Source: Shigella phage ESh27
Sequence record: ON528737
Reading direction: 5' to 3' (one strand)
DNA length: 64,000 bases
Part shown: in pieces, positions 13,300 to 48,247 of the stretch
Layout: every line of letters starts with the position of its first letter
How positions within the stretch are numbered: position 1 is the stretch's first letter
Notes under the pieces: generated by a model
Database searches by the model: none
Seen by the model: only the letters and a program-made list of their open reading frames with translations
Told to the model about the DNA's origin: nothing
Program-made: the position numbers and the translations under genes

Positions 13300-13334
13300 G
13301 TTTACATAAGGATGATGATGTGTTACTATCATCC
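13300..13334 (+). promoter_or_regulatory. early promoter (GTTTAC -35, TACTAT -10) with inverted repeat GGATGAT/ATCATCC
   Basis: -35 at 13300-13305, -10 at 13324-13329, 18-nt spacer. Confidence 0.5.
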
Positions 13335-13363
13335 TATCAAATAAACAACCTCAAGGAAATAAA

Positions 13364-13675
13364 ATGAAAACCTATCAAGAATTCATCGCGGAAGCTACTA
13401 AAGCGGATAAAAATTTTGTTATTAACACTAATGGCCCATTAGATGATGAATACGCTAATGCTATTATTAAGTCAATTTCTAATCAAGGCGTTGAAGTAAC
13501 AAATTTCGAATATAAGAAAAATGATACTTATATGGTAATTAGTATCAAAAAAGGTTCAAAGGCCAAAATTAAATCTGCGTTTGGTGTTATGCGAGTTGAC
13601 CAAATTGATAATCATGATTTTTCACAAACTGGGGTTAAACGCCAGAACACTATTTCATCTAAAGGCATAAAATAG
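13364..13675 (+). CDS. internal-protein-like protein with capsid targeting sequence (IPI position)
   Basis: N-terminus MKTYQEFIAEA equals the T4 internal-protein CTS; 103 aa; adjacent to 57B as ipI is in T4. Confidence 0.7.
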   Translation: MKTYQEFIAEATKADKNFVINTNGPLDDEYANAIIKSISNQGVEVTNFEYKKNDTYMVISIKKGSKAKIKSAFGVMRVDQIDNHDFSQTGVKRQNTISSKGIK

Positions 13676-13711
13676 TTTACATCTTGGTAGGACTATGTTA
13701 TAGTAGTCCTA
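13675..13711 (+). promoter_or_regulatory. early promoter cassette with palindrome TAGGACTA-N8-TAGTCCTA over the -10
   Basis: GTTTAC 13675-13680, TATAGT 13699-13704; 37-bp element repeated at 33491-33527. Confidence 0.5.
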
Positions 13712-13736
13712 ACAAAACAACAAAATGGAACCTAAA

Positions 13737-14000
13737 ATGAAAACTTTCAACGAATTCATCTCAGAATCGTCTGGTGTGAAAATTAACAAAGCGGTCAATC
13801 AGGTTATTGCTGATATTCTTAATTTGTATAACATTGACTTAACTCCGCATATCACGCTTGGTAACAAACGAAACTTTTTCATATTTGACACATCCGAACT
13901 TGACGAAAATCAGTTCAATAACATTCAACGTTTTGCGAATGATAAAGGTCTTCGACATGAGCCTGGTGGCTATAAAAAATACGCAATATATTTGAAATAA
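13737..14000 (+). CDS. internal-protein-like protein with CTS
   Basis: N-terminus MKTFNEFISES; start moved to the CTS methionine. Confidence 0.6.
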   Translation: MKTFNEFISESSGVKINKAVNQVIADILNLYNIDLTPHITLGNKRNFFIFDTSELDENQFNNIQRFANDKGLRHEPGGYKKYAIYLK

Positions 14001-14002
14001 AG

Positions 14003-14039
14003 GTATACAAGCCTATATGGATATGTTATAGTAGTCCTA
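14003..14039 (+). promoter_or_regulatory. early promoter cassette (variant -35 GTATAC, -10 TATAGT, TAGTCCTA arm)
   Basis: Shares ...tgttatagtagtccta core with 13675 and 33491 cassettes. Confidence 0.45.
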
Positions 14040-14069
14040 TCAAAACAAATGAGTAAATGGAGAAATAAA

Positions 14070-14255
14070 ATGAAACGCGCTGAACTGATTCGTAATGTTG
14101 CTGTAGTAATTGCTTCAATGGCTTTTAGTTTTTCGATGTTTGTAGGATTCATTTGCGGACTACTGACAACAACCGAAAATTCTATCTCATTGGTAGTAGC
14201 ATTTCTAATCGGTTTAATCGCTATTGTTATGGATAAAATTGCAAAAGGTGAGTAA
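14070..14255 (+). CDS. small hydrophobic membrane protein
   Basis: GGAG then ATG at 14070; two hydrophobic stretches. Confidence 0.5.
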   Translation: MKRAELIRNVAVVIASMAFSFSMFVGFICGLLTTTENSISLVVAFLIGLIAIVMDKIAKGE

Positions 14256-14618
14256 ATGAAATATCATGTATATGCAGATTTTGAAGCAAATCCTTCTAAA
14301 GACCCTGATTGTCGTTTGATACGTAGACCATTTGATTCGGCATCTCAAGCATGGGCTTGGATTAAAACTTGTACTCCTTCTTACACTTTCTTTGAAGTGG
14401 TAGATGATAACGGTGTTCTGCATCCAGAACCTACAGAAACTATTAATTTCCTTCTGTTTGCTGGTTATGACTGTTATCCTCTTGGTGGTATTGATGATCT
14501 TGTTGCTACAGGAAAAACTGTTGAAGCTCTTCGCGAAATTTATAAAAACGCAGAAGAAAATTTTGACTGGTATCATATTGTTGATGCTCATAGCTTTGAA
14601 GTGGTGGAACATTCATGA
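14256..14618 (+). CDS. hypothetical protein
   Basis: 120-aa ORF, tightly packed with neighbours. Confidence 0.6.
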   Translation: MKYHVYADFEANPSKDPDCRLIRRPFDSASQAWAWIKTCTPSYTFFEVVDDNGVLHPEPTETINFLLFAGYDCYPLGGIDDLVATGKTVEALREIYKNAEENFDWYHIVDAHSFEVVEHS

Positions 14619-14905
14619 TTCTTTATGCTAAAGTGTCATCTATTGAGAACGGATACGAAAGCGACCAACGTGCAGCTAAAGCACTAGTTGATGACTACGG
14701 TATTCTGACTAACTTTGAGGTTGAAAAGGTTTATATCGACCGTTCATCTTCGCAAGTTAAATTACTCTGTGAAGATGATAAATTTAACACAGTTAACTTT
14801 GATTTCTTTATTGAAACAGAAAAAGGCCCTCTTGAATACAATATTTTCAAGAATCCTTTGAAATTACGTTGCATTGAATATAATTACATTAATATGGTAC
14901 GGTGA
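14615..14905 (+). CDS. hypothetical protein
   Basis: 96-aa ORF, ATGA overlap with upstream gene. Confidence 0.55.
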   Translation: MILYAKVSSIENGYESDQRAAKALVDDYGILTNFEVEKVYIDRSSSQVKLLCEDDKFNTVNFDFFIETEKGPLEYNIFKNPLKLRCIEYNYINMVR

Positions 14906-14909
14906 GTAA

Positions 14910-15425
14910 ATGAATATTTGTTTAGGCAGTACAATTCCTAAGGGTTATGTAATTGATGTCACTACCTATGAAAATGATGGTGACAACTATAAAACCAAAA
15001 CATTGTTTGAAGTGGAAGAGCATGAGCTCCAACAGTTTAAATATCTTTTGAAGAAATTTAAGAGTCGTCATTCTAGCACTAAAGCTGAACGTTACTGTGG
15101 TAATACACCATTCAGTGATTGCTCGCTTTTAATCTATGAATACTTGGTTGAAGGATTGTTCTCAGACCAGCTTTATCCAGAATTCATTAAAAAGGTCTTT
15201 GATATTGAAGTCGACCTCGGTAATAAATCTGAAGAAGATGAATCACGTGTATTTGACCTGTTCCGTGAGAATGGATATTTAGTATCAGAAGGTCTCATTG
15301 ATATTCTTGGCCATGCTTCTGAATATTATGATTATGATTTCTTGCGTGTAGTCGAATGTGTTGAATTTGCTTATATTGAAGAAGAAATCGTTTTGCCAAC
15401 TGTTAAAATGATTGATTTGCTTTAA
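14910..15425 (+). CDS. hypothetical acidic protein
   Basis: 171-aa ORF. Confidence 0.6.
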   Translation: MNICLGSTIPKGYVIDVTTYENDGDNYKTKTLFEVEEHELQQFKYLLKKFKSRHSSTKAERYCGNTPFSDCSLLIYEYLVEGLFSDQLYPEFIKKVFDIEVDLGNKSEEDESRVFDLFRENGYLVSEGLIDILGHASEYYDYDFLRVVECVEFAYIEEEIVLPTVKMIDLL

Positions 15426-15504
15426 GAATTATGTGTTATTATTAATTCATACCCTCTATTACCAAAGGTGCTCTAAAGTGCCTTTCATAATAGAAAGTTA
15501 TTTA

Positions 15505-15576
15505 GGCCCTGTAGCTCAATGGGAGAGCTGTCAGCTCATAACTGATAGGTAGCTGGATCGAAACCAGCCAGGGTCA
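15505..15576 (+). tRNA. tRNA with CAT anticodon (Met, or AUA-reading Ile if lysidine-modified as in T4)
   Basis: Hand-folded cloverleaf: acceptor GGCCCTG/CAGGGTC, D stem GCTC/GAGC, anticodon loop CTCATAA, T stem GCTGG/CCAGC, then ACCA. Confidence 0.85.
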
Positions 15577-15601
15577 CCAAACAATTTATGAGAATAACAC
15601 T

Positions 15602-16135: not shown

Positions 16136-16142
16136 GGAAAAT

Positions 16143-16750: not shown

Positions 16751-16799
16751 AACACTTGCCTTAGCAGGTGGAACCCCGACAAGGTTGCCTCAAGGCTTA

Positions 16800-17582: not shown

Positions 17583-17612
17583 GTTTACATCCCTGTTCTT
17601 CCGTGGTACTAT
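17583..17612 (+). promoter_or_regulatory. early promoter (GTTTAC / TACTAT)
   Basis: 18-nt spacer; downstream ATCAACTAC leader motif. Confidence 0.5.
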
Positions 17613-17653
17613 ACAACTATCAACTACCGATACAGAAAAACTTGGAGAATGAA

Positions 17654-17917
17654 ATGGATAATTACGGTGAACTGTTCAACTTCTTTATGAAATGCGTTCC
17701 AGAAGATTTCGGACGTACGGTGAATGATATTAAAGTTATCGGTCCTGAACACCCTGTGTATGAAACCTATGCAGTAATGGGTAACGAAGATGGACAGTGG
17801 TATACAATTAAAGTTGTGATTAATATGTTCTCAGCTGAAGGTTACGCCAAATCGTCTACCAAAGTTTACCATGATAATGTCGAAATCGCTGAAGAATATT
17901 TCGATAATATGAAATAA
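17654..17917 (+). CDS. hypothetical protein
   Basis: Start MDNYGELF after GGAGAA; upstream in-frame ATG lies before the predicted transcript start. Confidence 0.55.
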   Translation: MDNYGELFNFFMKCVPEDFGRTVNDIKVIGPEHPVYETYAVMGNEDGQWYTIKVVINMFSAEGYAKSSTKVYHDNVEIAEEYFDNMK

Positions 17918-17974
17918 ATGCGTACATGGGCTTATGATTGAGATATTATGAGCCCTATTAATGAGGAGAATATT

Positions 17975-18280
17975 ATGAGTCTTTACACTGAACTGAATAA
18001 AAAATCTGAAGAATCTTCTGAAACTATTTTTAAAAACGTGCAAAAGCGTATTTTAGAAAAGACGTATAATGCTGCAGCTAAAGGTGAAAAATCTTGCCAG
18101 TTTCCGATGAGGTGTTCTTCAGATTTATGCGCAAACACTATTGAATGGCTGGAAAGTGAAGGTCTTACGGTAGAGAAAAACCCGGCGACTTCTATTGACA
18201 GTGAATCATATATTAGTATTTCTTGGGATAAACCTCGTACGAATGAAGGACACTACAAGTTGTTAAGTTGGAAAAATTAA
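17975..18280 (+). CDS. hypothetical protein
   Basis: GAGGAGAA then ATG at 17975. Confidence 0.55.
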   Translation: MSLYTELNKKSEESSETIFKNVQKRILEKTYNAAAKGEKSCQFPMRCSSDLCANTIEWLESEGLTVEKNPATSIDSESYISISWDKPRTNEGHYKLLSWKN

Positions 18281-18288: not shown

Positions 18289-18318
18289 ATGTACAAACAC
18301 CAAGGATGGTGATACTAT
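18289..18318 (+). promoter_or_regulatory. early promoter (variant -35, TACTAT -10, CACCA/TGGTG repeat)
   Basis: Same downstream ATCAACTAC...GAGGAG leader as other cassettes. Confidence 0.45.
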
Positions 18319-18347
18319 AGACTTATCAACTACAGAGGAGAAACAAA

Positions 18348-18575
18348 ATGGCTAAAGTTAGTATTGATGTCGTTGATTATGAATACACCGAAGAAGTTAT
18401 TCGCAACCGACACCCTGAAGTTCGTATCGATTCAGTCCAAGATTCCAAGTTCTGGACAACTGAGCTTAATCTGAGTGGTCCTTATGAAGCTGTTAAGAAG
18501 TTCATGGTTGAAGAATATTGCGAAGGCATGCACCCAGAAGACGCCAAGTTTTATGTCAATTTGATTAAAAAATAA
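18348..18575 (+). CDS. hypothetical protein
   Basis: 75-aa ORF after GAGGAGAAACAAA. Confidence 0.6.
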   Translation: MAKVSIDVVDYEYTEEVIRNRHPEVRIDSVQDSKFWTTELNLSGPYEAVKKFMVEEYCEGMHPEDAKFYVNLIKK

Positions 18576-18623
18576 TTTACAAACTCTTGAGAGCAGAGTA
18601 TAATGCTCTCGTTGGATAATAAA
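18575..18623 (+). promoter_or_regulatory. early promoter cassette (TATAAT -10 inside GAGAGCA/TGCTCTC palindrome), repeat copy A
   Basis: 41 bp 18583-18623 identical to 48207-48247. Confidence 0.5.
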
Positions 18624-18645
18624 CCACCAATTGAAAGGTAATAAT

Positions 18646-19239
18646 ATGAACACACTGAAGAAACTTGTTGAATTCATTCGCACTAAACTGGGTACTGCTA
18701 TGGCTAAAAATCTGACTGTCGAAGAACAGTATAACGCAGCCGCAGATAAGTTGATTACCCAAATCAAAGAACTAAAAACGGCTTCTATTAAATCTATTAA
18801 TGAAGAAAAACGTATTCGCGAACTTGTTAATGAAAAGAACAAGCAAGCCGCTTCTAAGGAACGTGAAATTCGTAAGCTCCTGGCTGAAGGACAAGATGTT
18901 ACCATGCATGCTAAGCTTGGACTTCTGTATCGTCGAACCGCCGAACAACTTAATACAAAAGCTGACGGGTATGCCGCTATGCGAATTGAAATTGCTCGTA
19001 AGGTGGTTGAACTTGACGATGCTCGTCAGAACCTGGCAATCAAACTTGAATACATCCGCGAAACTCGAGCAGCCAATGCCCTTGGTATCTCTACAGCTGA
19101 TGATGTAATTGAAATTGCTGCACTGACTAAGGTTGATATCGAAGACACTCTGACTCGTGTTGAAACATTCAATGGCACTCCAGCCGGTGTTGAAACCACT
19201 TCTGCTGATGTACAAGAATATATTAACTCTTTGAAATAA
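18646..19239 (+). CDS. hypothetical coiled-coil protein
   Basis: 197 aa, charged heptad-like sequence; AAAGG then ATG at 18646. Confidence 0.6.
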
Positions 19240-20255: not shown

Positions 20256-20593
20256 CCGTATGGCCTTCTCTTGGTGAGAACATTCTAATTTTTATTATGA
20301 GTATTGGCATGGGATTTGCCTTTGGATTAGTTGGATTTATTATTGACGGCGTTGTGTTAGGATTTATAGGGAACACTGGTGGATTCACAGACCAATGGCA
20401 GGACTTACGGTATACCCAAGCCTTTGCATCCATCGCATCGTTTTGTACTGTAGCCTATTTTTACTACGATTTTATAAACCATAACAAGAAAAATAAAAAA
20501 GTTTACGCTTCTCAAATGATTAGTTATAATGAACTTCTAGCTAGACGTGAAAATGAAACAATCGAAAACTTTATTAAGGAATGTAGAAAATGA
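20234..20593 (+). CDS. membrane protein
   Basis: 119 aa with two hydrophobic helices. Confidence 0.55.
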   Translation: MQKPQLLTVWPSLGENILIFIMSIGMGFAFGLVGFIIDGVVLGFIGNTGGFTDQWQDLRYTQAFASIASFCTVAYFYYDFINHNKKNKKVYASQMISYNELLARRENETIENFIKECRK

Positions 20594-21384: not shown

Positions 21385-21388
21385 AACA

Positions 21389-21425
21389 GTTTACAACAAG
21401 ATAGGGCTATGTTATAGTAGTCCTA
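21389..21425 (+). promoter_or_regulatory. early promoter cassette (GTTTAC / TATAGT / TAGTCCTA arm)
   Basis: Same core as the 13675 cassette with one arm mismatch. Confidence 0.5.
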
Positions 21426-21446
21426 TCAAATTAAATGGAGTCCACA

Positions 21447-21686
21447 ATGATTTATTACGAAAGTATCGGAACCGAAGTAGTTGCTAAAACTATTACTCGT
21501 GAAAGGTTTGCAAAGATATTCGATATGCGTTATAAAAAATCTGAACACAAAGGCATCCGATTCGAAGATGCGCACTGTACAATTTGTCCTTATAATGAAG
21601 ACATAAACGGTACAATCGTTCCGTTGGTAGAGGCTTCACATGATGACCTCTGGGATGAATATAATATCGCATGTCGTGAAATTTAA
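21447..21686 (+). CDS. hypothetical protein
   Basis: GGAG then ATG at 21447. Confidence 0.55.
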   Translation: MIYYESIGTEVVAKTITRERFAKIFDMRYKKSEHKGIRFEDAHCTICPYNEDINGTIVPLVEASHDDLWDEYNIACREI

Positions 21687-22680: not shown

Positions 22681-22717
22681 GTTTACACAATTATAGGACT
22701 ATGTTATAGTAGTCCTA
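22681..22717 (+). promoter_or_regulatory. early promoter cassette with perfect palindrome TAGGACTA-N8-TAGTCCTA
   Basis: GTTTAC 22681-22686, TATAGT 22705-22710. Confidence 0.5.
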
Positions 22718-22738
22718 TTAAAACATGAGGAGAATATT

Positions 22739-23044
22739 ATGAAATTATCCGAAACCAACCGAATTGGCCTTTTAACGATACTTACATCACCTTTTTATGC
22801 TGTGCTTTCTGTTGCAGTATTACAAAAGGCCTATGGCATGGACGGTGTTCCTGGTTGTGTATTTTTATCACCATTTTTGTTATTCGTTGGTGCTCTGTTA
22901 TTATACGCGACAACAGGTTTCGACCATAATGTTTGGGTCAAGTTTAAACGTAGATTAACTGAAGAAGAACACGCTGAAGCTCGTAAAAAAGCTATTGAAT
23001 CAACAGATTTAGAAAATTTTGTTAAAGAATGTCGAGGAAAATAA
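22739..23044 (+). CDS. membrane protein
   Basis: 101 aa, two hydrophobic helices. Confidence 0.6.
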   Translation: MKLSETNRIGLLTILTSPFYAVLSVAVLQKAYGMDGVPGCVFLSPFLLFVGALLLYATTGFDHNVWVKFKRRLTEEEHAEARKKAIESTDLENFVKECRGK

Positions 23045-25706: not shown

Positions 25707-25760
25707 GTTTACTTCCTCCAAGGACTTTGATACTATACATTCATCAACTACTTGGAGGAA
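25707..25760 (+). promoter_or_regulatory. early promoter inside a 10-bp inverted repeat that includes the denV SD
   Basis: GTTTAC 25707-12, TACTAT 25731-36; arms TTCCTCCAAG (25714-23) / CTTGGAGGAA (25751-60). Confidence 0.55.
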
Positions 25761-25763
25761 ATT

Positions 25764-26177
25764 ATGACTCGTATCAATTTAACACTTGTTTCTGAACTGA
25801 CTGACCAACATCTTATGGCTGAGTATCGTGAATTACCACGCGTATTTGGTGCAGTCCGTAAACATGTTCAAAACGGTAAACGTGTAAAGGATTTTAAAAT
25901 CTCTCCGACATTTATCTTAGGCACGGGTCACGTAACATTCTTTTACGACAAACTCGAATTTTTACGTTTACGTCAAATCGAGCTAATCACTGAATGCTTG
26001 AAACGTGGTTTCAAAATCAAGGACACGACAGTCCAGGATATTTCCGACATCCCTGCCGAATTTCGTAATAATTATGTCCCGTCCGAAGCGTCCATTGCGA
26101 TAAGTCAAGCACGCTTAGATGAAAAAATTGCTCAACGTCCGACTTGGTACAAATACTATGGTAAATCAATTTACTAA
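25764..26177 (+). CDS. denV: endonuclease V (pyrimidine dimer DNA glycosylase)
   Basis: [34 protein letters not shown]... matches T4 DenV. Confidence 0.96.
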
Positions 26178-26446: not shown

Positions 26447-26478
26447 TGTTTACGCTTAAGTATTAATATGGTATAATT
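26447..26478 (+). promoter_or_regulatory. early promoter (GTTTAC / TATAAT)
   Basis: Followed by the CTATCAAAACAA leader motif. Confidence 0.45.
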
Positions 26479-26507
26479 ACTCTATCAAAACAAACAAGGA
26501 AACAAAA

Positions 26508-27086
26508 ATGAAAACATATAAAGAATTTATCGCCGAGGCCTTTGCAGGAAAAGTCCAAGGCATTAATAAGGACGAGTGGAATTATCGTGGCGGAAACGGC
26601 TTTGACCCTAAAACTGCTCCTATTGAACGGTACTTAGCTACAAAGGCTTCCGACTTTAAAGCCTTCGCTTGGGAAGGACTTCGCTGGCGTAACGATCTAA
26701 ATATTGAAGTTGATGGTCTTAAATTTGCTCATATTGAAGATGTTGTTGCTAGTAACTTAGACGCAGCTTTTGTTAAAGCCGACAGTGACCTTCGTCGCTG
26801 GAATTTAAAACTGTTCTCTAAACAAAAAGGCCCGAAGTTTGTGCCTAAAGCAGGTAAATGGGTCATTGATAATAAATTGGCTAAAGCTGTCAACTACGCT
26901 GGTCTTGAATTTGCCAAGCATAAATCATCATGGAAAGGTCTTGACGCAATGGCTTTCCGTAAAGAATTTGCCGATGTTATGGCTAAAGGCGGCTTTAAGG
27001 CAGAAATAGATACCTCTAAAGGTACGTTTAAAGACGCTAATGTTCAGTACGCTTACGCCGTTGCTAATGCAGCCCGTGGTAATTAA
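26508..27086 (+). CDS. internal-protein-like protein with CTS (IPIII-sized)
   Basis: N-terminus MKTYKEFIAEA; 192 aa. Confidence 0.7.
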   Translation: MKTYKEFIAEAFAGKVQGINKDEWNYRGGNGFDPKTAPIERYLATKASDFKAFAWEGLRWRNDLNIEVDGLKFAHIEDVVASNLDAAFVKADSDLRRWNLKLFSKQKGPKFVPKAGKWVIDNKLAKAVNYAGLEFAKHKSSWKGLDAMAFRKEFADVMAKGGFKAEIDTSKGTFKDANVQYAYAVANAARGN

Positions 27087-29177: not shown

Positions 29178-29228
29178 GTTTACTTCTCCTCTAGTTGTGT
29201 TACTATAGACCTGTCAACTAGAGGAGAA
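29178..29228 (+). promoter_or_regulatory. early promoter inside a perfect 14-bp inverted repeat that includes the regB SD
   Basis: GTTTAC 29178-83, TACTAT 29201-06; arms TTCTCCTCTAGTTG (29184-97) / CAACTAGAGGAGAA (29215-28). Confidence 0.55.
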
Positions 29229-29234
29229 ATCAAA

Positions 29235-33038: not shown

Positions 33039-33090
33039 GTTTACTTCTCCTCAGGTTGTGTTATAGTAGACCTTACTTACTAGAGGAGAA
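33039..33090 (+). promoter_or_regulatory. early promoter with TTCTCCTC / GAGGAGAA inverted repeat spanning the SD
   Basis: GTTTAC 33039-44, TATAGT 33062-67. Confidence 0.55.
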
Positions 33091-33094
33091 CGTT

Positions 33095-33274
33095 ATGTCA
33101 CGTAAAGAAAAAATTTCTAAGTTAATGTTTTTGATTGAAGAGTACGCTAACGCTGTATCTGATTGGGAAAATGCCCATGGGTGTGAAGACGGTGATATCG
33201 ATATCAATAAGGCAATGAAAAAGATGGCCGACTCCCACACCGAATTGCAAATGTATGTTAACGAGATTATGTGA
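33095..33274 (+). CDS. hypothetical protein
   Basis: GAGGAGAA then ATG at 33095. Confidence 0.55.
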   Translation: MSRKEKISKLMFLIEEYANAVSDWENAHGCEDGDIDINKAMKKMADSHTELQMYVNEIM

Positions 33275-33281: not shown

Positions 33282-33491
33282 ATGCTTTACGATTATACTG
33301 GAAAATCTGAAGACGGCGTACTTGAACTTTTACCTGAAAGCGCTGAAGATGATGATATGACGACGGTGATGTTTTGTAAAAATGGCCCTGGGGATAAGGG
33401 ATGGATTTATCTTCGTCAAGAAAATGACCTAATTGTTTTGGACCCTAAACAAGTTGAAGAGCTTTATCAACATTTAAAACACAATCGGTAG
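33282..33491 (+). CDS. hypothetical acidic protein
   Basis: GAGG then ATG at 33282. Confidence 0.55.
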   Translation: MLYDYTGKSEDGVLELLPESAEDDDMTTVMFCKNGPGDKGWIYLRQENDLIVLDPKQVEELYQHLKHNR

Positions 33492-33527
33492 TTTACATCT
33501 TGGTAGGACTATGTTATAGTAGTCCTA
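33491..33527 (+). promoter_or_regulatory. early promoter cassette, 37-bp repeat of 13675-13711
   Basis: Identical gtttacatcttggtaggactatgttatagtagtccta. Confidence 0.5.
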
Positions 33528-33548
33528 CTAAAACAAACGGAGAACAAA

Positions 33549-33659
33549 ATGAAACTTTTGCTTATCGCTTATGTTGTAGTACAATACAATTATCCGATGT
33601 TTACGTATAACATGGTAAACGGTGTAATGAATCTTATTGAAGCGAGTATGGTAAAATGA
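33549..33659 (+). CDS. small hydrophobic ORF (36 aa)
   Basis: GGAGAA then ATG; below ORF-track length cutoff. Confidence 0.3.
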   Translation: MKLLLIAYVVVQYNYPMFTYNMVNGVMNLIEASMVK

Positions 33660-35883: not shown

Positions 35884-35912
35884 GTGTACATGCTTTTAGG
35901 ATATGTTATTAT
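35884..35912 (+). promoter_or_regulatory. early promoter (GTGTAC / TATTAT)
   Basis: 17-nt spacer; followed by the CTATCAAAACAAGAGG leader. Confidence 0.45.
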
Positions 35913-35940
35913 AGACCTATCAAAACAAGAGGAAAACAAA

Positions 35941-36159
35941 ATGAAAACCAAAATGTTAGAAATGATTCGTGAAGCTGGTGATAAAGGTCTTATGGTTAAC
36001 ACTCGTGATGCAGACCAACGTCAAGCATTCGGTGAACTGAAAGCTAAAGGTCTAGTTAAAGCATCCTTGGGAATCGGTAACGCATTACGAGTCACTTTGA
36101 CTCCTGCTGGTAAAGCAATGTTCTTTCAACCTCTTACCAAAAAATCTCGTCGCAAATAA
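35941..36159 (+). CDS. small basic protein, possible winged-helix DNA-binding
   Basis: 72 aa; GAGGAAAA then ATG; fold assignment is a guess. Confidence 0.5.
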   Translation: MKTKMLEMIREAGDKGLMVNTRDADQRQAFGELKAKGLVKASLGIGNALRVTLTPAGKAMFFQPLTKKSRRK

Positions 36160-36161: not shown

Positions 36162-36190
36162 GTTTACTTTTGCTTTAAACATGTTATTAT
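36162..36190 (+). promoter_or_regulatory. early promoter (GTTTAC / TATTAT)
   Basis: 17-nt spacer. Confidence 0.5.
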
Positions 36191-36229
36191 AGACCTATCG
36201 AAACGAAATGAGTAAATTTGGAGAATAAA

Positions 36230-37210
36230 ATGTTCAACGTTCAAATCAAAAAAGGTATCTATCGTAATAACGAAATCTCTGGTTCTTATGTTGCCACAAA
36301 GACATGGTTCCCGGCAAAGCTTAATCCTGAATGTTCCCACTTAGGTGACGGTAAAATTTTCGTTATGATTGATGGTTCTGAACGTGGAGTATGGGTCTTC
36401 AAATCAGACATCGTAATGGAAGGAGTTGAGACATCACCAGTTGCAGTTATTGAAAGCGCTGAAGATATGAAAACTCGTATCAACAAACGCTTTAAAGTAA
36501 TGAACATGATGACGAATGGCATTATCGATGGCAAAATTCGTTCACTCATTATTTCAGGTGCAGCAGGTATTGGTAAGACGTATTCTCTGGATAAAGCACT
36601 TAATAATGCTAATGATAATGGTTTCATCAAATACAAAAGCATTAATGGCAAAATCTCTGGTATTGGCCTTTACGAACAACTTTGGCTCAACCGTGATGCA
36701 GACAGCGTTCTCTTAATCGATGACGTTGACGTATTCTCAGATATGGATATCTTGAACCTTCTTAAAGCAGCATTAGATACTGGCGATAAACGCAAAGTTT
36801 GCTGGAGCACTGCATCATCTTATCTTGATGATAAGGGTATCGATAAAGAATTTGAGTTTGAAGGTACTATCGTTTTCATTACAAACGTTGATATCGATAA
36901 AGAGTTAGAACGCGGTTCGAAACTTGCTCCACACCTTCAAGCTTTAGTATCTCGTTCAGTGTATTTGGACCTTGGAGTACACTCTAATGAAGAGATTATG
37001 GTCCGAGTTGAAGATGTAATATTATCTACTGACATGATGCAGAAACGTGGTCTGACTGATGCTGAAACGTATAAAGCATTGTCCTGGATGAAGGCTAACA
37101 TATCTCGTCTTCGCAATGTATCATTACGTACGGCTCTTTATGTAGCAGATTTTATTTCAACTGATAAAGACGGTTGGGAGGAAATCTCCGAAGTAACTTT
37201 ACTGAAATAA
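36230..37210 (+). CDS. AAA+ family ATPase
   Basis: Walker A GAAGIGKT, Walker B VLLIDDVD, sensor-1-like FITN; 326 aa. Confidence 0.7.
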   Translation: MFNVQIKKGIYRNNEISGSYVATKTWFPAKLNPECSHLGDGKIFVMIDGSERGVWVFKSDIVMEGVETSPVAVIESAEDMKTRINKRFKVMNMMTNGIIDGKIRSLIISGAAGIGKTYSLDKALNNANDNGFIKYKSINGKISGIGLYEQLWLNRDADSVLLIDDVDVFSDMDILNLLKAALDTGDKRKVCWSTASSYLDDKGIDKEFEFEGTIVFITNVDIDKELERGSKLAPHLQALVSRSVYLDLGVHSNEEIMVRVEDVILSTDMMQKRGLTDAETYKALSWMKANISRLRNVSLRTALYVADFISTDKDGWEEISEVTLLK

Positions 37211-37638: not shown

Positions 37639-37672
37639 GTTTACAAGGTCTATGGTTATGTTATTATAGACC
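37639..37672 (+). promoter_or_regulatory. early promoter with GGTCTAT/ATAGACC inverted repeat
   Basis: GTTTAC 37639-44, TATTAT 37662-67. Confidence 0.5.
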
Positions 37673-37694
37673 TATCAACTACTGGAGGTAAAAC

Positions 37695-38222
37695 ATGAAC
37701 GCTAAAGATATTTTCAACCTGGTAAATTATAACGACGGTAAATTTAAATCTGAAGCACAAAGCAAGTTCTTTAATGACGTTGCTTATGGTAACGAGATTA
37801 CCGTGGACGGAGGTCAGATTTTCAAATCTCGCTGGAATTGGATTGTTATCATCGATTCGATTGGAATTGTGGAAGTCTACAAAAACACTAACAAAAAACG
37901 TACATTATTCTGGTCTCGTGAAACTAACGAGCAGTACAAAAAGGATAAAGCATCTCGTTTATCCAAAGTAACCAAGGAAGATATCGAGTTTATCAAGAAA
38001 GATATCGAGATGTACGAAAATTTAATCGCTGAAGACCAGGCAGTACTCGATAAGTTTGATGAAATTAAAGCTTCTCGTGAAATCCCTGACTTCATGAAAG
38101 AAACAGTAAACGAACGATACGCTCTCACTTCAGAACGTATTGCAAACTATACAAAACAGAAATCAGAACGTATTAGTACTCTTCGGAAATTTGAAGAACG
38201 TTTAAAGACGGTTCACGCATAA
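37695..38222 (+). CDS. hypothetical protein
   Basis: 175-aa ORF after CTGGAGG. Confidence 0.6.
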   Translation: MNAKDIFNLVNYNDGKFKSEAQSKFFNDVAYGNEITVDGGQIFKSRWNWIVIIDSIGIVEVYKNTNKKRTLFWSRETNEQYKKDKASRLSKVTKEDIEFIKKDIEMYENLIAEDQAVLDKFDEIKASREIPDFMKETVNERYALTSERIANYTKQKSERISTLRKFEERLKTVHA

Positions 38223-38284: not shown

Positions 38285-39280
38285 ATGAGCATTACATCTG
38301 ATGCGGTAAAACATGAAATTAACGGTTTATGTGCTTCACAGATTAAAGTGTGGTTTAAAGACCATAACGATCGCAGAGCACTTAATTATGAGCAAATTGC
38401 TATCCAAGTTCATCAATTACTGACTAGTAAATTTGATTTTCATATGCCGTCTGAAATCTATACTAATCTGCCGCGAGCACTTATTAAAGCGTGTAAAGGT
38501 TATGGAAAATCAATGGCTGATGGAATCTTCAGCGCGCTGAATAAACTTAACGTTCTGTCGATGATTAACTCTAACAACATCCTGCGTAATCTAGGACGTA
38601 CTGATTTGTTCGGTCGTGAACAGTGTAAAATGCCTTTGAAATGGATCGTTGCTCATCTTAACGAGAACCAAACACGTTTTATGGCTGTAACAGCACGTTT
38701 ACAAATGGGCCTAGATCGTCAGATGAACTTTAAAACTCATCCACGTTATTCAGGTTCAACAGACTTTTATAAATGCGAGCTTCAAAAGGTCGGTGGCAAA
38801 ACTGTCTTAGTAGTTCGTGTAACGTTTGAAGGACGACGTCAAGGATATTTTGACATAATCGGCTCTGGACTTAAACATTGCGGATTTATCGACGAAGTTG
38901 ATATCAAGCGAGACGGCATTGGATACCGTATTGGATATGTTTGTACTCTTAAAGAAGAGATTTCAGGACCAGCACCAGGACTAAAAGACGTTAGATATAA
39001 AGACGAGCTCGTCGAAGAAATAAAAGAAGTTGAATATGATATCAACCAAGAAGATGCTCTTAAAGACCTTATTGATGAACTGAACCAAGACGTTATTCCG
39101 GTTCAGAAATTTGAATCAAAACATGCTGAGCAAATCAAATACTTTGAAGCTTTGATTAACGAACTTAATGTAACTATTCAACAGACCGACGATGAAATCT
39201 CACGATTGGCCGGATTGAACGGCAAAAATAAAACAGAACGAGCTAATCTTATTCAAGTAGTAAAACTTCTTAAGGAATGA
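38285..39280 (+). CDS. hypothetical protein with C-terminal coiled coil (triplet member 1)
   Basis: 331 aa; last ~60 aa heptad-like. Confidence 0.6.
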   Translation: MSITSDAVKHEINGLCASQIKVWFKDHNDRRALNYEQIAIQVHQLLTSKFDFHMPSEIYTNLPRALIKACKGYGKSMADGIFSALNKLNVLSMINSNNILRNLGRTDLFGREQCKMPLKWIVAHLNENQTRFMAVTARLQMGLDRQMNFKTHPRYSGSTDFYKCELQKVGGKTVLVVRVTFEGRRQGYFDIIGSGLKHCGFIDEVDIKRDGIGYRIGYVCTLKEEISGPAPGLKDVRYKDELVEEIKEVEYDINQEDALKDLIDELNQDVIPVQKFESKHAEQIKYFEALINELNVTIQQTDDEISRLAGLNGKNKTERANLIQVVKLLKE

Positions 39281-39309
39281 TGTACAACCAAGGATGGTTG
39301 GAGTATAAT
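39281..39309 (+). promoter_or_regulatory. early promoter cassette (core ACAACCAAGGATGGTTGGAGTATAAT)
   Basis: 26-bp core repeated at 40304-40329. Confidence 0.45.
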
Positions 39310-39335
39310 AAATTTTTCAACATGAGGAATATAAA

Positions 39336-40295
39336 ATGGCTCCTATTACACGTAGAGAACTTATCAAAGAATTTACCTCGAACGCATATACCCCAGGACC
39401 TAATCCTATCCGTATGCCTGTAAAGACACCTGAAGAGATTGAGGAAATCTGTTCATATTATGGGATTAATTCTCGTAAGTTTACTCAATTTGAATGTGTT
39501 ACTAACACACCCGTTAAAGAGTTCATTAAAAATGGTGAGTTCAGCCGTTTACTGGCCAAACAGAAACTTCGTAATTTTTGTATTGGCGGTTATGGACAAT
39601 ATTTCGCTAAGCAGTTCCGGAATAACCTTAACAATCTGATGGCCATTGCTTCTCGTATTCGTCCTCAAGCAATTAACATGAAACATTTGAAATATACTTA
39701 CGATAAGTTGGAAATCATGGTTATCAGTGAGAACGAGTTCACTCTTACGTATAAACCTAAGAATGATAACGTTGCTCGTGTATTCCACCAAGCGTTGGAA
39801 GTTTTAGGTGATAATATCCACGAGATTAAAGCAATTTATTCTCGTGAGCTTAATATTATCGACGTTATCAAGAATAAGGGCCATATCGCTATCCAGGCTC
39901 GTGTATCTATTGGTAAAAAGGTTCCTGCGCCATGGTGGCACAAAGACTCTGAATACTATCAAAATCTTAAAAAGGAAAATGCATTGTTTGAAGGCAATAT
40001 TACAGCAACACCAGTCGGTAATGCAGAGGTTCTAGGCGCATATTCTCCGGCACAATCTGGTATGTTTAAAGGTTTGCCAAATGTGTGCAAACTGTCGGCA
40101 GTAAAACTAAATGTTTCTAATGACCTTCTTCCGGCTGAAGATTATCATTACAATCAAATCAAGGCTACTGTAGACCAACTGTCTGCTGAACTTGATAAGG
40201 CACAAGCTAAGCTTCGTGATGCTCAACAGGTGGTGACCAATCTCCAGTTGCAGTACTCTAAACTTTTTAACGCAATGAATGCATTAAAATCATAA
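39336..40295 (+). CDS. hypothetical protein with C-terminal coiled coil (triplet member 2)
   Basis: 319 aa. Confidence 0.6.
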   Translation: MAPITRRELIKEFTSNAYTPGPNPIRMPVKTPEEIEEICSYYGINSRKFTQFECVTNTPVKEFIKNGEFSRLLAKQKLRNFCIGGYGQYFAKQFRNNLNNLMAIASRIRPQAINMKHLKYTYDKLEIMVISENEFTLTYKPKNDNVARVFHQALEVLGDNIHEIKAIYSRELNIIDVIKNKGHIAIQARVSIGKKVPAPWWHKDSEYYQNLKKENALFEGNITATPVGNAEVLGAYSPAQSGMFKGLPNVCKLSAVKLNVSNDLLPAEDYHYNQIKATVDQLSAELDKAQAKLRDAQQVVTNLQLQYSKLFNAMNALKS

Positions 40296-40299: not shown

Positions 40300-40329
40300 G
40301 TTTACAACCAAGGATGGTTGGAGTATAAT
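40300..40329 (+). promoter_or_regulatory. early promoter cassette (GTTTAC / TATAAT), copy of 39281 core
   Basis: GTTTAC 40300-05, TATAAT 40324-29. Confidence 0.5.
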
Positions 40330-40357
40330 GAATCTATCTTAACGAGAGGAAAATATT

Positions 40358-41302
40358 ATGACGCGTTCACATTACATTGAATACTTTGCCGGTCTTATCG
40401 CTAACGTTCGTGCCCAGCGCGCCGTTGGTGCACTAGGATTTGATGTTCCACACCGAGATGTAGTAAGTGGTATTCTTCGCGATTTTGGTACATACACAGG
40501 CCAAGAAAACCATATCTGTAAAGATACTCAGAATGCGTATTCTCATTCATTAGGGACACTGCTTCAATGGTTCAAACGTTCTCGTTTATTATCTTCTACT
40601 GTAGCTCGCGATAACATTAAAAACTTTATGAAGCCGAGCTTTATTAAATCTGTGACATCTAAAACCGATTTGGTTGAATTCACTATTGTTAATGATGTTA
40701 AAAAGGCTCATTTGGCCGATTGGTTATCTACCATTCCTGAAACTAAATTTGCCGATAAATTTGCTTGTGAATTCAACAACCAAGTGAATATGCTTTTTAA
40801 ACATTCTCGTAAATTATTCACAGGCGGTGATGGTCGTACAAATAAAGTTCATGTTAAAGATTGGGTTACTGCAGTATTCAAACCAACCGGTAATGGTAAC
40901 GCATCATTATCAATTGATATCCAGGTTCCTTATTACTACTCACGTAATCTCGGTACCATGAAAGCCGAAGAAATTAATAAGCACAACAAAACCGTTCGTT
41001 CATTGTCTTATAAACTCCTTGTGATGTTACAGACTATGGATGTTGTTGAAATGTTTGACGAAACCGAAGATAACGGTTCAATGTTATTCAGTTCTCGAAT
41101 TCGAATTAAACTGAAGAACCCTAATGTGTTTAAGCCTATTAAAGAACCTAAAGCAGAAAAGGTCGATATCATGGCTGAAGAACGTGAGTACCTCAAATCT
41201 CGTCTGAAAGAAGTCGAAGCCCAGATTGCAGAACAAACTAAATCGTTAAAAGCTCTGAATGCGAAAGCTGACGGTTTACGAAATGCCATTGAGGTGTTAT
41301 AA
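40358..41302 (+). CDS. hypothetical protein with C-terminal coiled coil (triplet member 3)
   Basis: 314 aa. Confidence 0.6.
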   Translation: MTRSHYIEYFAGLIANVRAQRAVGALGFDVPHRDVVSGILRDFGTYTGQENHICKDTQNAYSHSLGTLLQWFKRSRLLSSTVARDNIKNFMKPSFIKSVTSKTDLVEFTIVNDVKKAHLADWLSTIPETKFADKFACEFNNQVNMLFKHSRKLFTGGDGRTNKVHVKDWVTAVFKPTGNGNASLSIDIQVPYYYSRNLGTMKAEEINKHNKTVRSLSYKLLVMLQTMDVVEMFDETEDNGSMLFSSRIRIKLKNPNVFKPIKEPKAEKVDIMAEEREYLKSRLKEVEAQIAEQTKSLKALNAKADGLRNAIEVL

Positions 41303-41607
41303 TGAACTTACGTCTTTTAGAGGATATTGATATGAACACTAATCACAGCTTAGTTAAGTTTATTGATGATAGTTCAAAGATTGAATTTGTTCAGCGAGAT
41401 AAAATCCACGGTGAAGAAGAGTTCGTTCCTCCAGCATGGAACGAAATAATGAAAATGGTTGAACGACGTGAAAATGCTGCCAAATCGGCAGCAAAACATC
41501 CATGTCCGGAATGTGGAACTATCCAAGTCCAATTGGTTAACTGGACCACTGATAACTTGAAATTGAAATGCCGTAAATGCTTCCACAAATTTGAGAGAAC
41601 ATTATAA
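41302..41607 (+). CDS. zinc-ribbon protein
   Basis: CPECG...CRKC four-cysteine motif. Confidence 0.55.
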   Translation: MNLRLLEDIDMNTNHSLVKFIDDSSKIEFVQRDKIHGEEEFVPPAWNEIMKMVERRENAAKSAAKHPCPECGTIQVQLVNWTTDNLKLKCRKCFHKFERTL

Positions 41608-42629: not shown

Positions 42630-42757
42630 ACCATGGTATTCGGCTCGATGGGAGACTGTCGAGCCAGACGTCGAAACGGTTTACAACGGCGAAGAACCAT
42701 GTTATGATGAACCTTCAATAAATGAATTAATTGATATGGAAATGGGAAGAGATTATT

Positions 42758-45255: not shown

Positions 45256-45722
45256 ATTATGATAGATTTTATCCTTGCGATTTTGTGAATGGCCCTGGTT
45301 GCAGGGTCGTTCTTTTCGTTACAGGTTGTTTGCATAAATGCGAAGGGTGTTATAATAAATCAACATGGAATGCTAGAAATGGTATTCCATTCACCGGTGA
45401 AACACTAGAACAATTAATTGAATGTTTGAATAATGATTATATAGAAGGATTAACTATAACCGGAGGTGACCCTCTCTATCCTGACAACCGAGATGTTATT
45501 CATTCTGTGGTTCAAACTATTAAAAATATTTATCCAAATAAAAGCATTTGGTTGTGGACAGGATATAAGTTTGAAGATATTAAACAACTAGAAATGCTTA
45601 AATATGTTGATGTTATTATTGATGGGAAGTATGAGAAAAATCTTCCGACCAAAAAGCTGTGGCGAGGATCAGATAATCAGCGACTTTGGTCAAATACCAA
45701 TGGGGTGTGGAAACATGATTAA
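45252..45722 (+). CDS. nrdG: anaerobic RNR activating enzyme (radical SAM)
   Basis: CDFVNGPGCRVVLFVTGCLHKCEGCYN cysteine cluster; 156 aa. Confidence 0.9.
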   Translation: MNYDRFYPCDFVNGPGCRVVLFVTGCLHKCEGCYNKSTWNARNGIPFTGETLEQLIECLNNDYIEGLTITGGDPLYPDNRDVIHSVVQTIKNIYPNKSIWLWTGYKFEDIKQLEMLKYVDVIIDGKYEKNLPTKKLWRGSDNQRLWSNTNGVWKHD

Positions 45723-46769: not shown

Positions 46770-46798
46770 GTTTACATCCTCGATAGATATGTTAAGAT
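46770..46798 (+). promoter_or_regulatory. early promoter (GTTTAC / TAAGAT)
   Basis: 17-nt spacer; upstream A-rich tract. Confidence 0.45.
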
Positions 46799-46827
46799 TA
46801 ACACCATCTACCACAGAGGAAAACAAA

Positions 46828-47010
46828 ATGACAATTGAAGATAAAGAAATTAAGGTTGACCAGTACTATTCTGTCAATGGTAATGCAGTACGGATAACCA
46901 GAATTTCAAGCCTGGATGTTTGGTATCGTTCAATCAAATATCCAGAAATTGGTGAACTGCTTTGTGACCGTGGTATCTTCTGTTCAATCGCGAAGGAAAT
47001 TAAACTATGA
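46828..47010 (+). CDS. hypothetical protein
   Basis: GAGGAAAA then ATG at 46828. Confidence 0.45.
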   Translation: MTIEDKEIKVDQYYSVNGNAVRITRISSLDVWYRSIKYPEIGELLCDRGIFCSIAKEIKL

Positions 47011-47255
47011 TTAGTTTAGATTCAAAGAAAGTTGTTCTAACCCTTAAAGTTAATGATGAGCGACCGGTATTCGTTACCATTTCAGATTTGCATGTTGAAA
47101 TTGCTAACGGCGTCCGTACTTATCAAACGTCTAAAACACATTGGGACTATATCCCAATGTTGACGCTTACTCAGCGTTTAGAATCAATCGGTCTTAAAGA
47201 CCTTTCAGTAAGTGAAGTGAATTTTATCAAACGCATTGTATCAATCAACCTCTGA
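47007..47255 (+). CDS. hypothetical protein
   Basis: 82-aa ORF, ATGA overlap. Confidence 0.5.
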   Translation: MISLDSKKVVLTLKVNDERPVFVTISDLHVEIANGVRTYQTSKTHWDYIPMLTLTQRLESIGLKDLSVSEVNFIKRIVSINL

Positions 47256-47262
47256 GGTACTT

Positions 47263-47556
47263 ATGGGTAAAACATATCGTCGTAAAGATTTGAAAGTTCG
47301 CGATTACGACTATTTTGGTAAGCGTAAAGCTCCTGATGGTGTTAGCCACAAAGACATGGTTGAAAACATCTTCCGCTCAGATAAATGGAAACGTATGAAA
47401 GGCGTTGATTCTGAAGTCAAGAACGAAATGAATCGACAACTCCGCAAAGAAGTTCGTAAGTTGAAAAAGGATGTTTACAGTAAAGAAGAGTATGATTATA
47501 ATACTTCTCATACTGAAGCCAAACGTAAAGCTAACGAATGTTATCGTTACAGTTGA
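47263..47556 (+). CDS. hypothetical basic protein
   Basis: GAGGT then ATG at 47263. Confidence 0.5.
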   Translation: MGKTYRRKDLKVRDYDYFGKRKAPDGVSHKDMVENIFRSDKWKRMKGVDSEVKNEMNRQLRKEVRKLKKDVYSKEEYDYNTSHTEAKRKANECYRYS

Positions 47557-47563
47557 GGAAATT

Positions 47564-47695
47564 ATGAATATCAAACGCTGGCTTTTTAAGCAAGGGTTCT
47601 ACACTTTAAATGCTACTCCAAAAGGCGATACAACTAAGTGGTCAGTAACTGACTGGATTAAATTTATTGATGAAAATGGCAATTGGGAAATTTAA
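47564..47695 (+). CDS. small ORF (43 aa)
   Basis: GAGGAA then ATG at 47564. Confidence 0.35.
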   Translation: MNIKRWLFKQGFYTLNATPKGDTTKWSVTDWIKFIDENGNWEI

Positions 47696-47896
47696 ATGAA
47701 TCCTGAATCTATGTTATCTCAAAAACTTCGTGAAGAACGTGCCGAATTCTTTGCCAATATGAAACTCAACGGTGTTGAGGATGAAGACTTTTTACGCTGG
47801 TTCTGGATTTACAAATACAAAGAATGCCAACATGCTGTACTATTGACTTGTGCAGTTATGTACGAAGGCTGGAAAGGCGCTAAAAAGTTCGGTTAA
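47696..47896 (+). CDS. hypothetical protein
   Basis: 66-aa ORF. Confidence 0.5.
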   Translation: MNPESMLSQKLREERAEFFANMKLNGVEDEDFLRWFWIYKYKECQHAVLLTCAVMYEGWKGAKKFG

Positions 47897-47898
47897 TA

Positions 47899-47938
47899 AT
47901 GTACAACGATAGGAAGACATGTTATTATCTTCCTATCG
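47899..47938 (+). promoter_or_regulatory. early promoter with perfect 11-bp inverted repeat CGATAGGAAGA/TCTTCCTATCG around the -10
   Basis: -35 ATGTAC 47899-904, -10 TATTAT 47923-28. Confidence 0.5.
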
Positions 47939-47959
47939 TCTTAAAATGAGGAAAATATC

Positions 47960-48199
47960 GTGGCCCAAGAATTAGATTTTATCAAATTCAAAAAACACCT
48001 CGACGTTAAAATTGGGGATTCAATTGTTAGGATTGAGTATGACATTTTAACAGATGCTATTACTGTTAGATGTGATGGAAATAGTTTCAGCTTCGATACA
48101 ACCGAAAACAAATACCCAATCTATAAAGGCATCTTTGATATGGGTGTTGATATTACTCCACGTGATACAAATTACTTACTTTTCATGCTTAAAAAATAG
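47960..48199 (+). CDS. hypothetical protein, GTG start
   Basis: GAGGAAA then GTG at 47960. Confidence 0.45.
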   Translation: MAQELDFIKFKKHLDVKIGDSIVRIEYDILTDAITVRCDGNSFSFDTTENKYPIYKGIFDMGVDITPRDTNYLLFMLKK

Positions 48200-48247
48200 T
48201 GTACAGACTCTTGAGAGCAGAGTATAATGCTCTCGTTGGATAATAAA
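48199..48247 (+). promoter_or_regulatory. early promoter cassette, repeat copy B of 18583-18623
   Basis: 41-bp identity; -35 GTGTAC 48199-204, TATAAT 48223-28. Confidence 0.5.

Follow-up and report, generated by a model that had tools for sequence, protein, structure and literature searches.

Early promoter cassettes with embedded stem-loops in the RB69-like Shigella phage ESh27

Early gene region and promoter family

The DNA analyzed here is a stretch of 64,000 nucleotides (nt) of Shigella phage ESh27 (record ON528737), hereafter the window, and the elements in question are promoter cassettes that lie between its small early genes, many of which contain a stem-loop. Positions 13300-23300 shared 96% nucleotide identity with the Escherichia phages phiE142 and RB69 (Mosigvirus), in the orientation opposite to that of the RB69 record. 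Judged by this identity, the window is that of an RB69-like T-even phage of Mosigvirus. According to the RB69 annotation, the gene order was 57B, internal-protein genes, the tRNA region, e, denV, vs, regB, tk, rI, nrdC, pin, 49, nrdD/G, and 55.x. The genes from 57B/ipI to gene 55 all read from left to right on the + strand.

The strict pattern GTTTAC-N17/18-TANNNT was matched 20 times in the window (18 on the + strand), compared with 2.05 ± 1.47 matches in shuffled sequences. A position-weight matrix (PWM) scan of the window found 25 sites on the + strand, all within 13300-48199, and one on the − strand. When the -35 variants ATGTAC, GTGTAC, and GTATAC were admitted, the + strand sites totaled 27, spanning ~13300-48270 (Table 1). 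Across all loci retrieved, the promoter matrix gave 194 matches on the gene strand and none on the opposite strand. The -10 element was extended (TGn) in 20 of the 27 sites. An A-rich, UP-like tract preceded the -35 hexamer: 17-22 of the 27 sites had A at most of the positions from -8 to -3 upstream of it (12 at -7), and the A fraction of the tract was 0.51 vs. 0.32 window-wide.

At least 20 of the 27 sites were intergenic, directly 5′ of a Shine-Dalgarno (SD) sequence and ATG, and co-oriented with the genes. In 17 of them the -35 hexamer began -1 to +13 nt from the upstream stop codon, so the promoter occupies the entire intergenic gap. The downstream genes were orthologues of T4 early genes (e.g., regB, denV, nrdC.x, and internal-protein genes). 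Three sites inside open reading frames (ORFs), at 20501, 45328, and 47473, were less certain members. The family thus showed the sequence features of a T4-type early promoter: a GTTTAC-like -35, a spacer of 17-18 nt, a TAnnnT -10, TGn, the A-rich tract, and location on the gene strand. These features indicate that the sites are sigma-70-dependent T4-type early promoters, with putative start sites, which fill the very short gaps between the early genes.

A sequence-only reading of this DNA had described at least 20 intergenic sites sharing a GTTTAC, a spacer, and a -10, and this was borne out by the counts above. The conserved leader that it placed after the -10 was recovered only in part: CTATCAA was exact in seven of the 27 sites, and about 16 had it when one-mismatch variants at the same offset were included. 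The inverted repeat TAGGACTA-N8-TAGTCCTA occurred exactly at 13688, 22694, and 33504 as described, with 0.01 matches expected in shuffled sequences, and a fourth copy at 21402 had one mismatch that was compatible with a G.U pair. The recurrence of whole cassettes was confirmed as well, with identical stretches of 39 bp at 13673 and 33489, 41 bp at 18583 and 48207, and 27 bp at 39283 and 40303. The cassettes around the 41-bp core shared 94% identity over 62 nt.

Stem-loops in the promoter cassettes

Folding of each cassette covered the sequence between the -35 hexamer and the start codon, and the shuffled controls preserved the -10. The summed minimum free energy (MFE) of the 27 cassettes was -298 kcal/mol, compared with -172 ± 11.6 kcal/mol after shuffling (z = -10.9). 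About 14 cassettes were individually significant, and ten of them had folding z-scores from -2.7 to -6.5. A stem was present in 17 of the 27 cassettes, and three classes could be distinguished by its position. In class A (four cassettes, at 25707, 29178, 33039, and 46770), a pyrimidine-rich arm just after the -35 hexamer paired with the SD region 20-25 nt beyond the -10. In class B (ten cassettes, at 13300, 13675, 17920, 18575, 21389, 22681, 33491, 37639, 47899, and 48199), the stem had 7-12 bp, with the 5′ arm in the spacer and a 3′ arm that starts at the last bases of the -10 and reaches about +1. It corresponds to the palindrome that had been noticed over the -10. Class C (18289, 39280, and 40300) was a mini hairpin of 5 bp within the spacer.

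In every class, the 5′ arm was located upstream of the putative start site of the promoter itself. Therefore, the hairpin is possible only in RNA that arrives from upstream, and the earlier proposal that the palindromes matter in read-through transcripts is consistent with this geometry. The cassettes contained about ten unrelated stem sequences. Among all loci, 56 distinct helices with at least eight Watson-Crick pairs could be sorted by position into two main groups, and their arms were unrelated. For the -10-centered stems, no common column-wise structure was retained, as the center of the helix varied between promoters (registers i+j from 44 to 51).

Pairing of the promoter spacer with the Shine-Dalgarno sequence

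The SD sequence lay in the 3′ arm of the helix in all four class A cassettes, which precede denV, regB, mobD.2a, and 55.6. Partition-function folds predicted that the probability of an unpaired SD falls from the promoter's own transcript to the read-through RNA from 0.41 to 0.00 for denV, 0.61 to 0.00 for regB, 0.53 to 0.00 for mobD.2a, and 0.67 to 0.01 for 55.6. The mobD.2a cassette was directly preceded by an intrinsic terminator at 33000-33028.

Comparison was made with regB loci from IMG/VR (RegB identity 40-99%) and with T4 itself. Nearly all lineages paired the regB spacer with the SD, via differing inner sequences. The inner arm pairs were TCTAGTTG/CAACTAGA, TCTTGACT/AGTTAAGA (T4), TCTTTATG/CATAAAGA, TGTAAGT/ACTTACA, TTTTAGT/ACTAAAA, TGTAG/CTACA, and TCATTTG/CAAATGA. 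When the arms were anchored on TCC and GGA only, cognate arms formed 5.2 consecutive inner pairs and cross-phage combinations 1.65. In the anchored alignment, ten of 14 pairs had changed on both sides in a compensatory manner. The covariation score was 0.348, against 0.117 ± 0.024 in shuffled alignments. None of 500 shuffles reached this score, and sliding the partner column gave no more than 0.091. In T4, regB has GTTTAC-TTTTCCTCTTGACTG...CAGTTAAGAGGAGAA, with one G.U pair in the TCTTGACT/AGTTAAGA segment and another farther out in the helix, and denV has TCTCCTGTAG...CTACAGGAGA; T4 thus has both helices.

The orthologues of denV showed at least ten different arm solutions that mask the SD. 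In some lineages the anti-SD had shifted from the spacer into the -10/discriminator region (e.g., ATGATGTCTTCC / GGAGGACATCAT), still upstream of the start site. The helix was therefore maintained through compensatory change at both regB and denV. In the denV promoter of one T4-group contig (L005:6896), an outer SD/anti-SD helix with G.U pairs (TTTCTCC / GGAGGGA) enclosed an inner 8-bp stem centered on the -10, AATTGTGA / TCACAATT, which suggests that stems of both classes can be nested within a single structure. At the nrdC.5 homologue (39280-39338), the predicted accessibility of the SD fell from 0.29 to 0.01 in read-through RNA with no obvious anti-SD in the spacer; the palindromic TTCTTAAGGAA immediately before the -35 may be its partner.

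Exchange of arms was also found at other orthologous promoters. At internal-protein promoters related to cassette 13300, RB69 and a T4-group phage had other complementary arms. Cassette 14003 retained only the 3′ arm, and its RB69 counterpart had the full stem TGATAAGACTA / TAGTCCTATCA. The T4-group counterpart of cassette 17920 had ACAGGCTCATGAT / ATTATGAGCCTGT, and the T4-group orthologue of cassette 33491 had an unrelated 14-bp stem, AGTTGGCAAGGTTA / TAATCTTGTCAACT. In RB69, the 55.2 promoter had CGAGAGA / TCTCTCG, a compensatory C-G to A-T change relative to the window. The nrdC.8 promoter had a class B stem in the window and a 15-bp class A stem, CTGTTCCTCTGTGGT / ACTACGGAGGAACAG, in T4-group phages, and nrdC.10, which had no stem here, had three different class B stems among its orthologues. 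On this comparative evidence, what is kept in evolution is the structure and not the sequence.

Modular organization and indels relative to RB69

Many ORF-sized indels separated the window from RB69 in the promoter region, and about eight of 20 breakpoints were within 43 nt of a cassette. This association is partly unavoidable, because nearly all intergenic DNA in this region is promoter. Breakpoints at or near cassettes were found at 13763/14003, 17525, 18318/18354, and 26536. An internal-protein gene was replaced between 13763 and 14003, where the exchange left the common N-terminal leader intact and reached as far as the following promoter, and another was replaced from 26536, which is 23 nt beyond cassette 26448. 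A small RB69 ORF was absent, with the breakpoint inside cassette 18289, and a 60-nt indel was located 39 nt before cassette 17583. The RB69ORF145c indel lay between two cassettes, and identical cores of 27-41 bp occurred at distant sites. The cassettes were thus enriched beside ORFs that differ between close relatives. Together with the early promoter consensus and the co-orientation with the genes, these indels sustain the view of the cassettes as portable promoter modules adjoining variable small ORFs.

The internal-protein genes starting at 13364, 13737, 16917, 26184, and 26508 had a common leader (MKTYQEFI...) and common surroundings of the start codon (repeat families D7 and D8). In comparison with RB69, the members at 13737-14000 and 26508-27086 were replaced from a breakpoint that directly followed this leader, and neither of the two replaced proteins had a Pfam match.

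The canonical intrinsic terminator AGCCCCTTCCGAAAGGTTGGGGCTTTTT was present three times (16799-16826, 32377-32404, and 33000-33028), with a variant at 17485-17513. The copies at 32377 and 33000 flanked an ORF of 185 aa (32438-32995; Pfam DUF7338, E = 8e-62) that was absent from RB69. It looks as if this ORF was gained or lost by recombination between the two terminator copies, not between two promoters. An ORF of 177 aa (15602-16135) with a T5orf172/MUG113 (GIY-YIG-like) domain lay just after tRNA-Met (15505-15579), the single tRNA in the window, and replaced ~93 bp of RB69 including a tRNA-Arg. It is probably a seg-like homing endonuclease insertion.

The RB69-style annotation would place some ORF starts inside a promoter: the ATGs at 17948 and 41302 fall in a -10, and that at 46789 falls in a spacer. 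The ATGs at 17975 and 46828, each with a good SD upstream, were more plausible starts than 17948 and 46789.

Table 1. Early promoter cassettes and promoter-like sites in the window (energies in kcal/mol; hom., homologue).
Promoter or site	Position	Strand	-35 variant	Class	Stem arms	Energy	Fold z	Remarks
Internal-protein gene (RB69p156 hom.)	13300..13366	+		B	13309-13317/13327-13335	-10.1	-2.7	-35 13300-13305, -10 13324-13329; PWM 31.2 bits
ipI-like gene	13675..13739	+		B	TAGGACTA 13688-13695 / TAGTCCTA 13704-13711	-13.9	-3.4	
tRNA.4 hom.	14003..14072	+	GTATAC					3′ arm TAGTCCTA only, half cassette without stem; MFE not significant
e.8 hom.	17583..17656	+						No significant stem; weak complementarity TTCTTCC vs. 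GGAGAA
RB69ORF146c hom.	17920..17977	+	GCGTAC	B	17928-17938/17945-17955	-15.6	-6.5	Weaker promoter; PWM 12.9 bits; two G.U
frd.3 hom.	18289..18350	+	ATGTAC	C	CACCA 18298-18302 / TGGTG 18307-18311			Mini hairpin
e.6 hom.	18575..18648	+		B	GAGAGCA 18589-18595 / TGCTCTC 18604-18610	-11.7	-3.3	
Promoter-like site within e.3 ORF, 5′ of RB69ORF139c hom.	20501..20592	+						No stem; less certain
RB69ORF135c hom.	21389..21449	+		B	GATAGGGCTA 21400-21409 / TAGTCCTATC 21418-21427		-4.4	One G.U
RB69ORF133c hom.	22681..22741	+		B	22693-22701/22710-22718		-4.1	
denV	25707..25766	+		A	TTCCTCCAAG 25713-25722 / CTTGGAGGAA 25751-25760	-17.6	-6.3	5′ arm anti-SD, 3′ arm contains SD
Internal-protein-like gene	26448..26510	+						No stem
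regB	29178..29237	+		A	TTCTCCTCTAGTTG 29184-29197 / CAACTAGAGGAGAA 29215-29228	-21.4	-5.1	5′ arm in spacer, 3′ arm contains SD
mobD.2a hom.	33039..33097	+		A	TTCTCCTC 33045-33052 / GAGGAGAA 33083-33090		-1.8	Low fold z; repeat family D9
34-aa ORF and tk.1	33491..33551	+		B	33504-33511/33520-33527		-5.5	Extendable to 14 pairs
RB69ORF102c hom.	35884..35943	+	GTGTAC					No significant stem
nrdC.10 hom.	36162..36232	+						No stem in this phage
nrdC.8 hom.	37639..37697	+		B	37646-37656/37663-37673	-13.4	-4.3	
nrdC.5 hom.	39280..39338	+	ATGTAC	C	AACCA 39286-39290 / TGGTT 39295-39299			Mini hairpin
nrdC.3 hom.	40300..40360	+		C	40306-40310/40315-40319			Mini hairpin
Promoter-like site, nrdC.3/nrdC.2 junction	41274..41334	+						nrdC.2 ATG within -10; no stem
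Promoter-like site, 49.1 region	42679..42733	+						No stem
Promoter-like site within nrdG	45328..45363	+	GTTTGC					Doubtful
55.6 hom.	46770..46830	+		A	Outer TCCTC 46777-46781 / GAGGA 46816-46820; inner 46784-46788/46806-46810	-11.5	-4.0	
Promoter-like site within 55.5, 5′ of 55.4 hom.	47473..47566	+						Weak stem only
RB69ORF075c hom. (GTG start)	47899..47962	+	ATGTAC	B	ACGATAGGAAGA 47906-47917 / TCTTCCTATCGT 47928-47939	-16.7	-5.7	12 bp; repeat family D2
55.2 hom.	48199..48268	+	GTGTAC	B	GAGAGCA 48213-48219 / TGCTCTC 48228-48234		-2.8	

Relation to known systems

In RB69, 57 early promoters were predicted, with GTTTAC at -36 to -31 and a C-rich stretch at -3 to -1, and early starts were mapped experimentally in RB49 (Nolan et al., 2006, PMC1524935). 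The sites in the window resembled the T4 and RB69 early promoters (PMC1524935; Hinton, 2010, PMC2988021) in GTTTAC at -36 to -31, the A-rich tract, TGn, TAnnnT, and the C-rich -3 to -1, and they likewise lay immediately before early genes and novel ORFs, always on the early-gene strand. Nothing essential differed; the window belongs to a close relative of RB69, not to RB69 itself. Neither of these two papers mentions inverted repeats, and stem-loops, hairpins, and palindromes are likewise not mentioned in PMC1524935.

Promoter-early stem-loops (PeSLs) have been defined in RB49/phi1, T4/PST, and KVP40/nt-1 (Arbiol et al., 2010, PMC2839356; Comeau et al., 2014, PMC4122927). The cassettes had the same composite architecture, an AT-rich tract and a sigma-70-like promoter with a stem-loop in or beside it, followed by SD and ATG. 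They were also concentrated, like PeSLs, in hyperplastic regions beside variable ORFs and tied to indels between close relatives, and the indel pattern agrees with PeSL-mediated shuffling. However, RB69-type phages were outside the analyses of both PeSL papers, and the stems in the window were less G+C-rich than the polyG/polyC stems of RB49. In the PeSL papers the stems are considered to terminate or attenuate transcription, and SD pairing is not described.

The closest parallel to class A is T4 gene e, whose long early transcripts are not translated, while those of an embedded late promoter are (Uzan and Miller, 2010, PMC3014915). The gene e hairpin was recovered in the window at 24912-24937 (ATACCTCC / GGAGGTAT) and served as an internal positive control; its loop contained a late-promoter-like TATAAA (TATAAACG). 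The hairpins of e, soc, 49, and I-TevI share with class A a 5′ arm upstream of the proximal start and an SD in the 3′ arm, so that only the proximal transcripts are translatable (PMC3014915). They differ in that the embedded promoter is late or middle there and an early sigma-70 promoter here; for gene e-type hairpins expression is late-only, whereas the prediction for class A is early-only. The inhibitory structures listed in that review are those of e, soc, 49, I-TevI to I-TevIII, mobE, and segB. The genes regB and denV do not appear in the list of this one review. For these two genes, a promoter with an embedded anti-SD may thus have gone undescribed in T4 as well, and no novelty is claimed for it.

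Shuffling at the internal-protein locus of T-even phages was described by Repoila et al. (1994), as cited in PMC4122927. In both cases internal-protein genes with a common promoter and N-terminal leader are swapped between relatives, and the likeness covers only the internal-protein subset of the cassettes.

Interpretation and alternative explanations

We consider it probable that the cassettes are T4-type early promoters whose hairpins would form only in read-through RNA, that these hairpins would mask the SD in class A and act as a boundary element in class B, and that the cassettes also serve as recombination points. At class A genes, read-through transcripts would be translationally masked, and the gene would be translated only from its own immediate-early promoter; its synthesis would cease once the early promoters were shut off. 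This model fits the statement that RegB production must be tightly regulated (PMC3014915). The class B stem would most likely be a boundary element in the read-through RNA, either an attenuator or a stabilizer of the 3′ end of the upstream message, in line with the PeSL proposal. With no other space in the intergenic gap, it would have to share the sequence of the promoter. None of the promoter stems was called as an intrinsic terminator in a consensus terminator scan. By inspection, class B stems were compared with SDs of the GGAG type, which are RegB targets; about five of ten cassettes with a stem had such an SD and two of six without, which gave no signal. As repeated and partly identical DNA, the cassettes could also be the points at which small ORFs are swapped.

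Several points weigh against this account. Its weakest part is the function of class B, whose stems have no U tract (the A-rich TCAAAAC comes next) and a modest G+C content, and thus are not canonical intrinsic terminators. No significant stem was found in 8-10 cassettes when MFE was compared with shuffled sequences, so the hairpin is not required for promoter function. Several cassettes are recent copies of one another, and the 27 sites are therefore not independent. The start sites were assumed to lie 7 nt after the -10 and depend on its position. The alignment behind the regB covariation score was anchored by the analyst on TCC and GGA, and no consensus structure emerged when 21 regB promoter regions were aligned with MAFFT and folded with RNAalifold, since the arms are out of register between lineages. 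The + sense folded better than the − sense in 43 of the 56 helices; however, random windows already favored the + sense in 57-62%, so this strand test was only suggestive that the hairpins act as RNA and not as DNA. The ratio of G.U to A.C was 32:11 raw and ~20:9 after related helices had been collapsed by eye, and several of the G.U pairs sit where TGn pairs with the -10; these counts, too, were only suggestive.

A broader version of SD masking can be entertained only tentatively. The promoter-embedded anti-SD would then be a general, conserved T-even switch (regB, denV, T4-group nrdC.8, mobD.2a, and 55.6), placed in the spacer or discriminator, that restricts translation of these genes to their own immediate-early promoter and silences them in the abundant delayed-early read-through RNA, and the -10-centered stems would be a partial form of it or part of early shut-off.

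It is unlikely that all stems, including class A, function primarily in termination or attenuation and as substrates for recombination, the role proposed for PeSLs, with the SD pairing incidental. One RB49 PeSL stem-loop lowered the expression of lacZ to about the same extent as rrnB T1, and recombination of PeSLs yields mini-circles (PMC2839356); the RB69 indel breakpoints at cassettes and the near-identical cassette copies would fit such a role too. However, the stems lack a U tract, and canonical U-tract terminators are present separately in the same region, at 16799, 17485, 32377, and 33000. Moreover, the helices at regB and denV always include the SD and covary with it, even where the anti-SD has been relocated to another place upstream of the start site, which a pure terminator would not require.

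An action of the inverted repeats in DNA is very improbable. Cruciforms or single-stranded hairpins might modulate promoter opening, or might be cut by endonuclease VII or gp46/47 for recombination; the repeats are true duplex palindromes over the melting region, the phage has genes for a junction-resolving enzyme and for an SbcCD-like nuclease, and the cassettes coincide with rearrangement breakpoints. Against this, mismatches of the G.U type were tolerated more than A.C and the + sense folded better, a modest bias after control. The class A loops of 17-30 nt would make poor cruciforms, and a logic of SD pairing is meaningless in DNA.

The sequence-only reading had offered two functions for the palindromes, and we give almost no credence to either. 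The first was that of operators for a dimeric regulator. Such a phage or host protein would sit on the -10, for example in early promoter shut-off, a mechanism described as incompletely understood (PMC3014915). Perfect inverted repeats centered on or near the -10 and the four promoters with TAGGACTA-N8-TAGTCCTA invite this idea, but at least ten unrelated arm sequences had no common half-site, and the center of symmetry moved by several nucleotides between promoters. Orthologous promoters exchanged their arms by double changes with complementarity kept, the 3′ arm in class A was the SD, 20-25 nt beyond the -10, and one third of the promoters had no palindrome. The second was RNase III processing of read-through transcripts: the hairpins would indeed form only in such RNA and lie between cistrons, but typical RNase III substrates have about two helical turns, ~20 bp, whereas the stems had only 7-15 bp, and an Rfam scan returned one tRNA only, with no family for the hairpins.

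Significance for T-even phages

The cassettes are an already known kind of element: early promoters such as an RB69-like phage should have, in the form of PeSLs. For annotation they are ordinary, and PeSL cassettes have already been proposed to drive ORF shuffling in T4-type genomes. A useful addition is a rule without exception among the stems, a 5′ arm that precedes the putative local start site. The findings also caution against taking palindromes at the promoters of compact phage genomes for operators. The comparative evidence is strong that the promoter spacer of regB and denV is selected to pair with the downstream ribosome-binding site across T-even phages, including T4. If this is true, it would explain how the output of RegB, a potentially harmful RNase, is limited to the first minutes of infection despite ongoing read-through transcription, and it would extend the gene e paradigm from late to early promoters.

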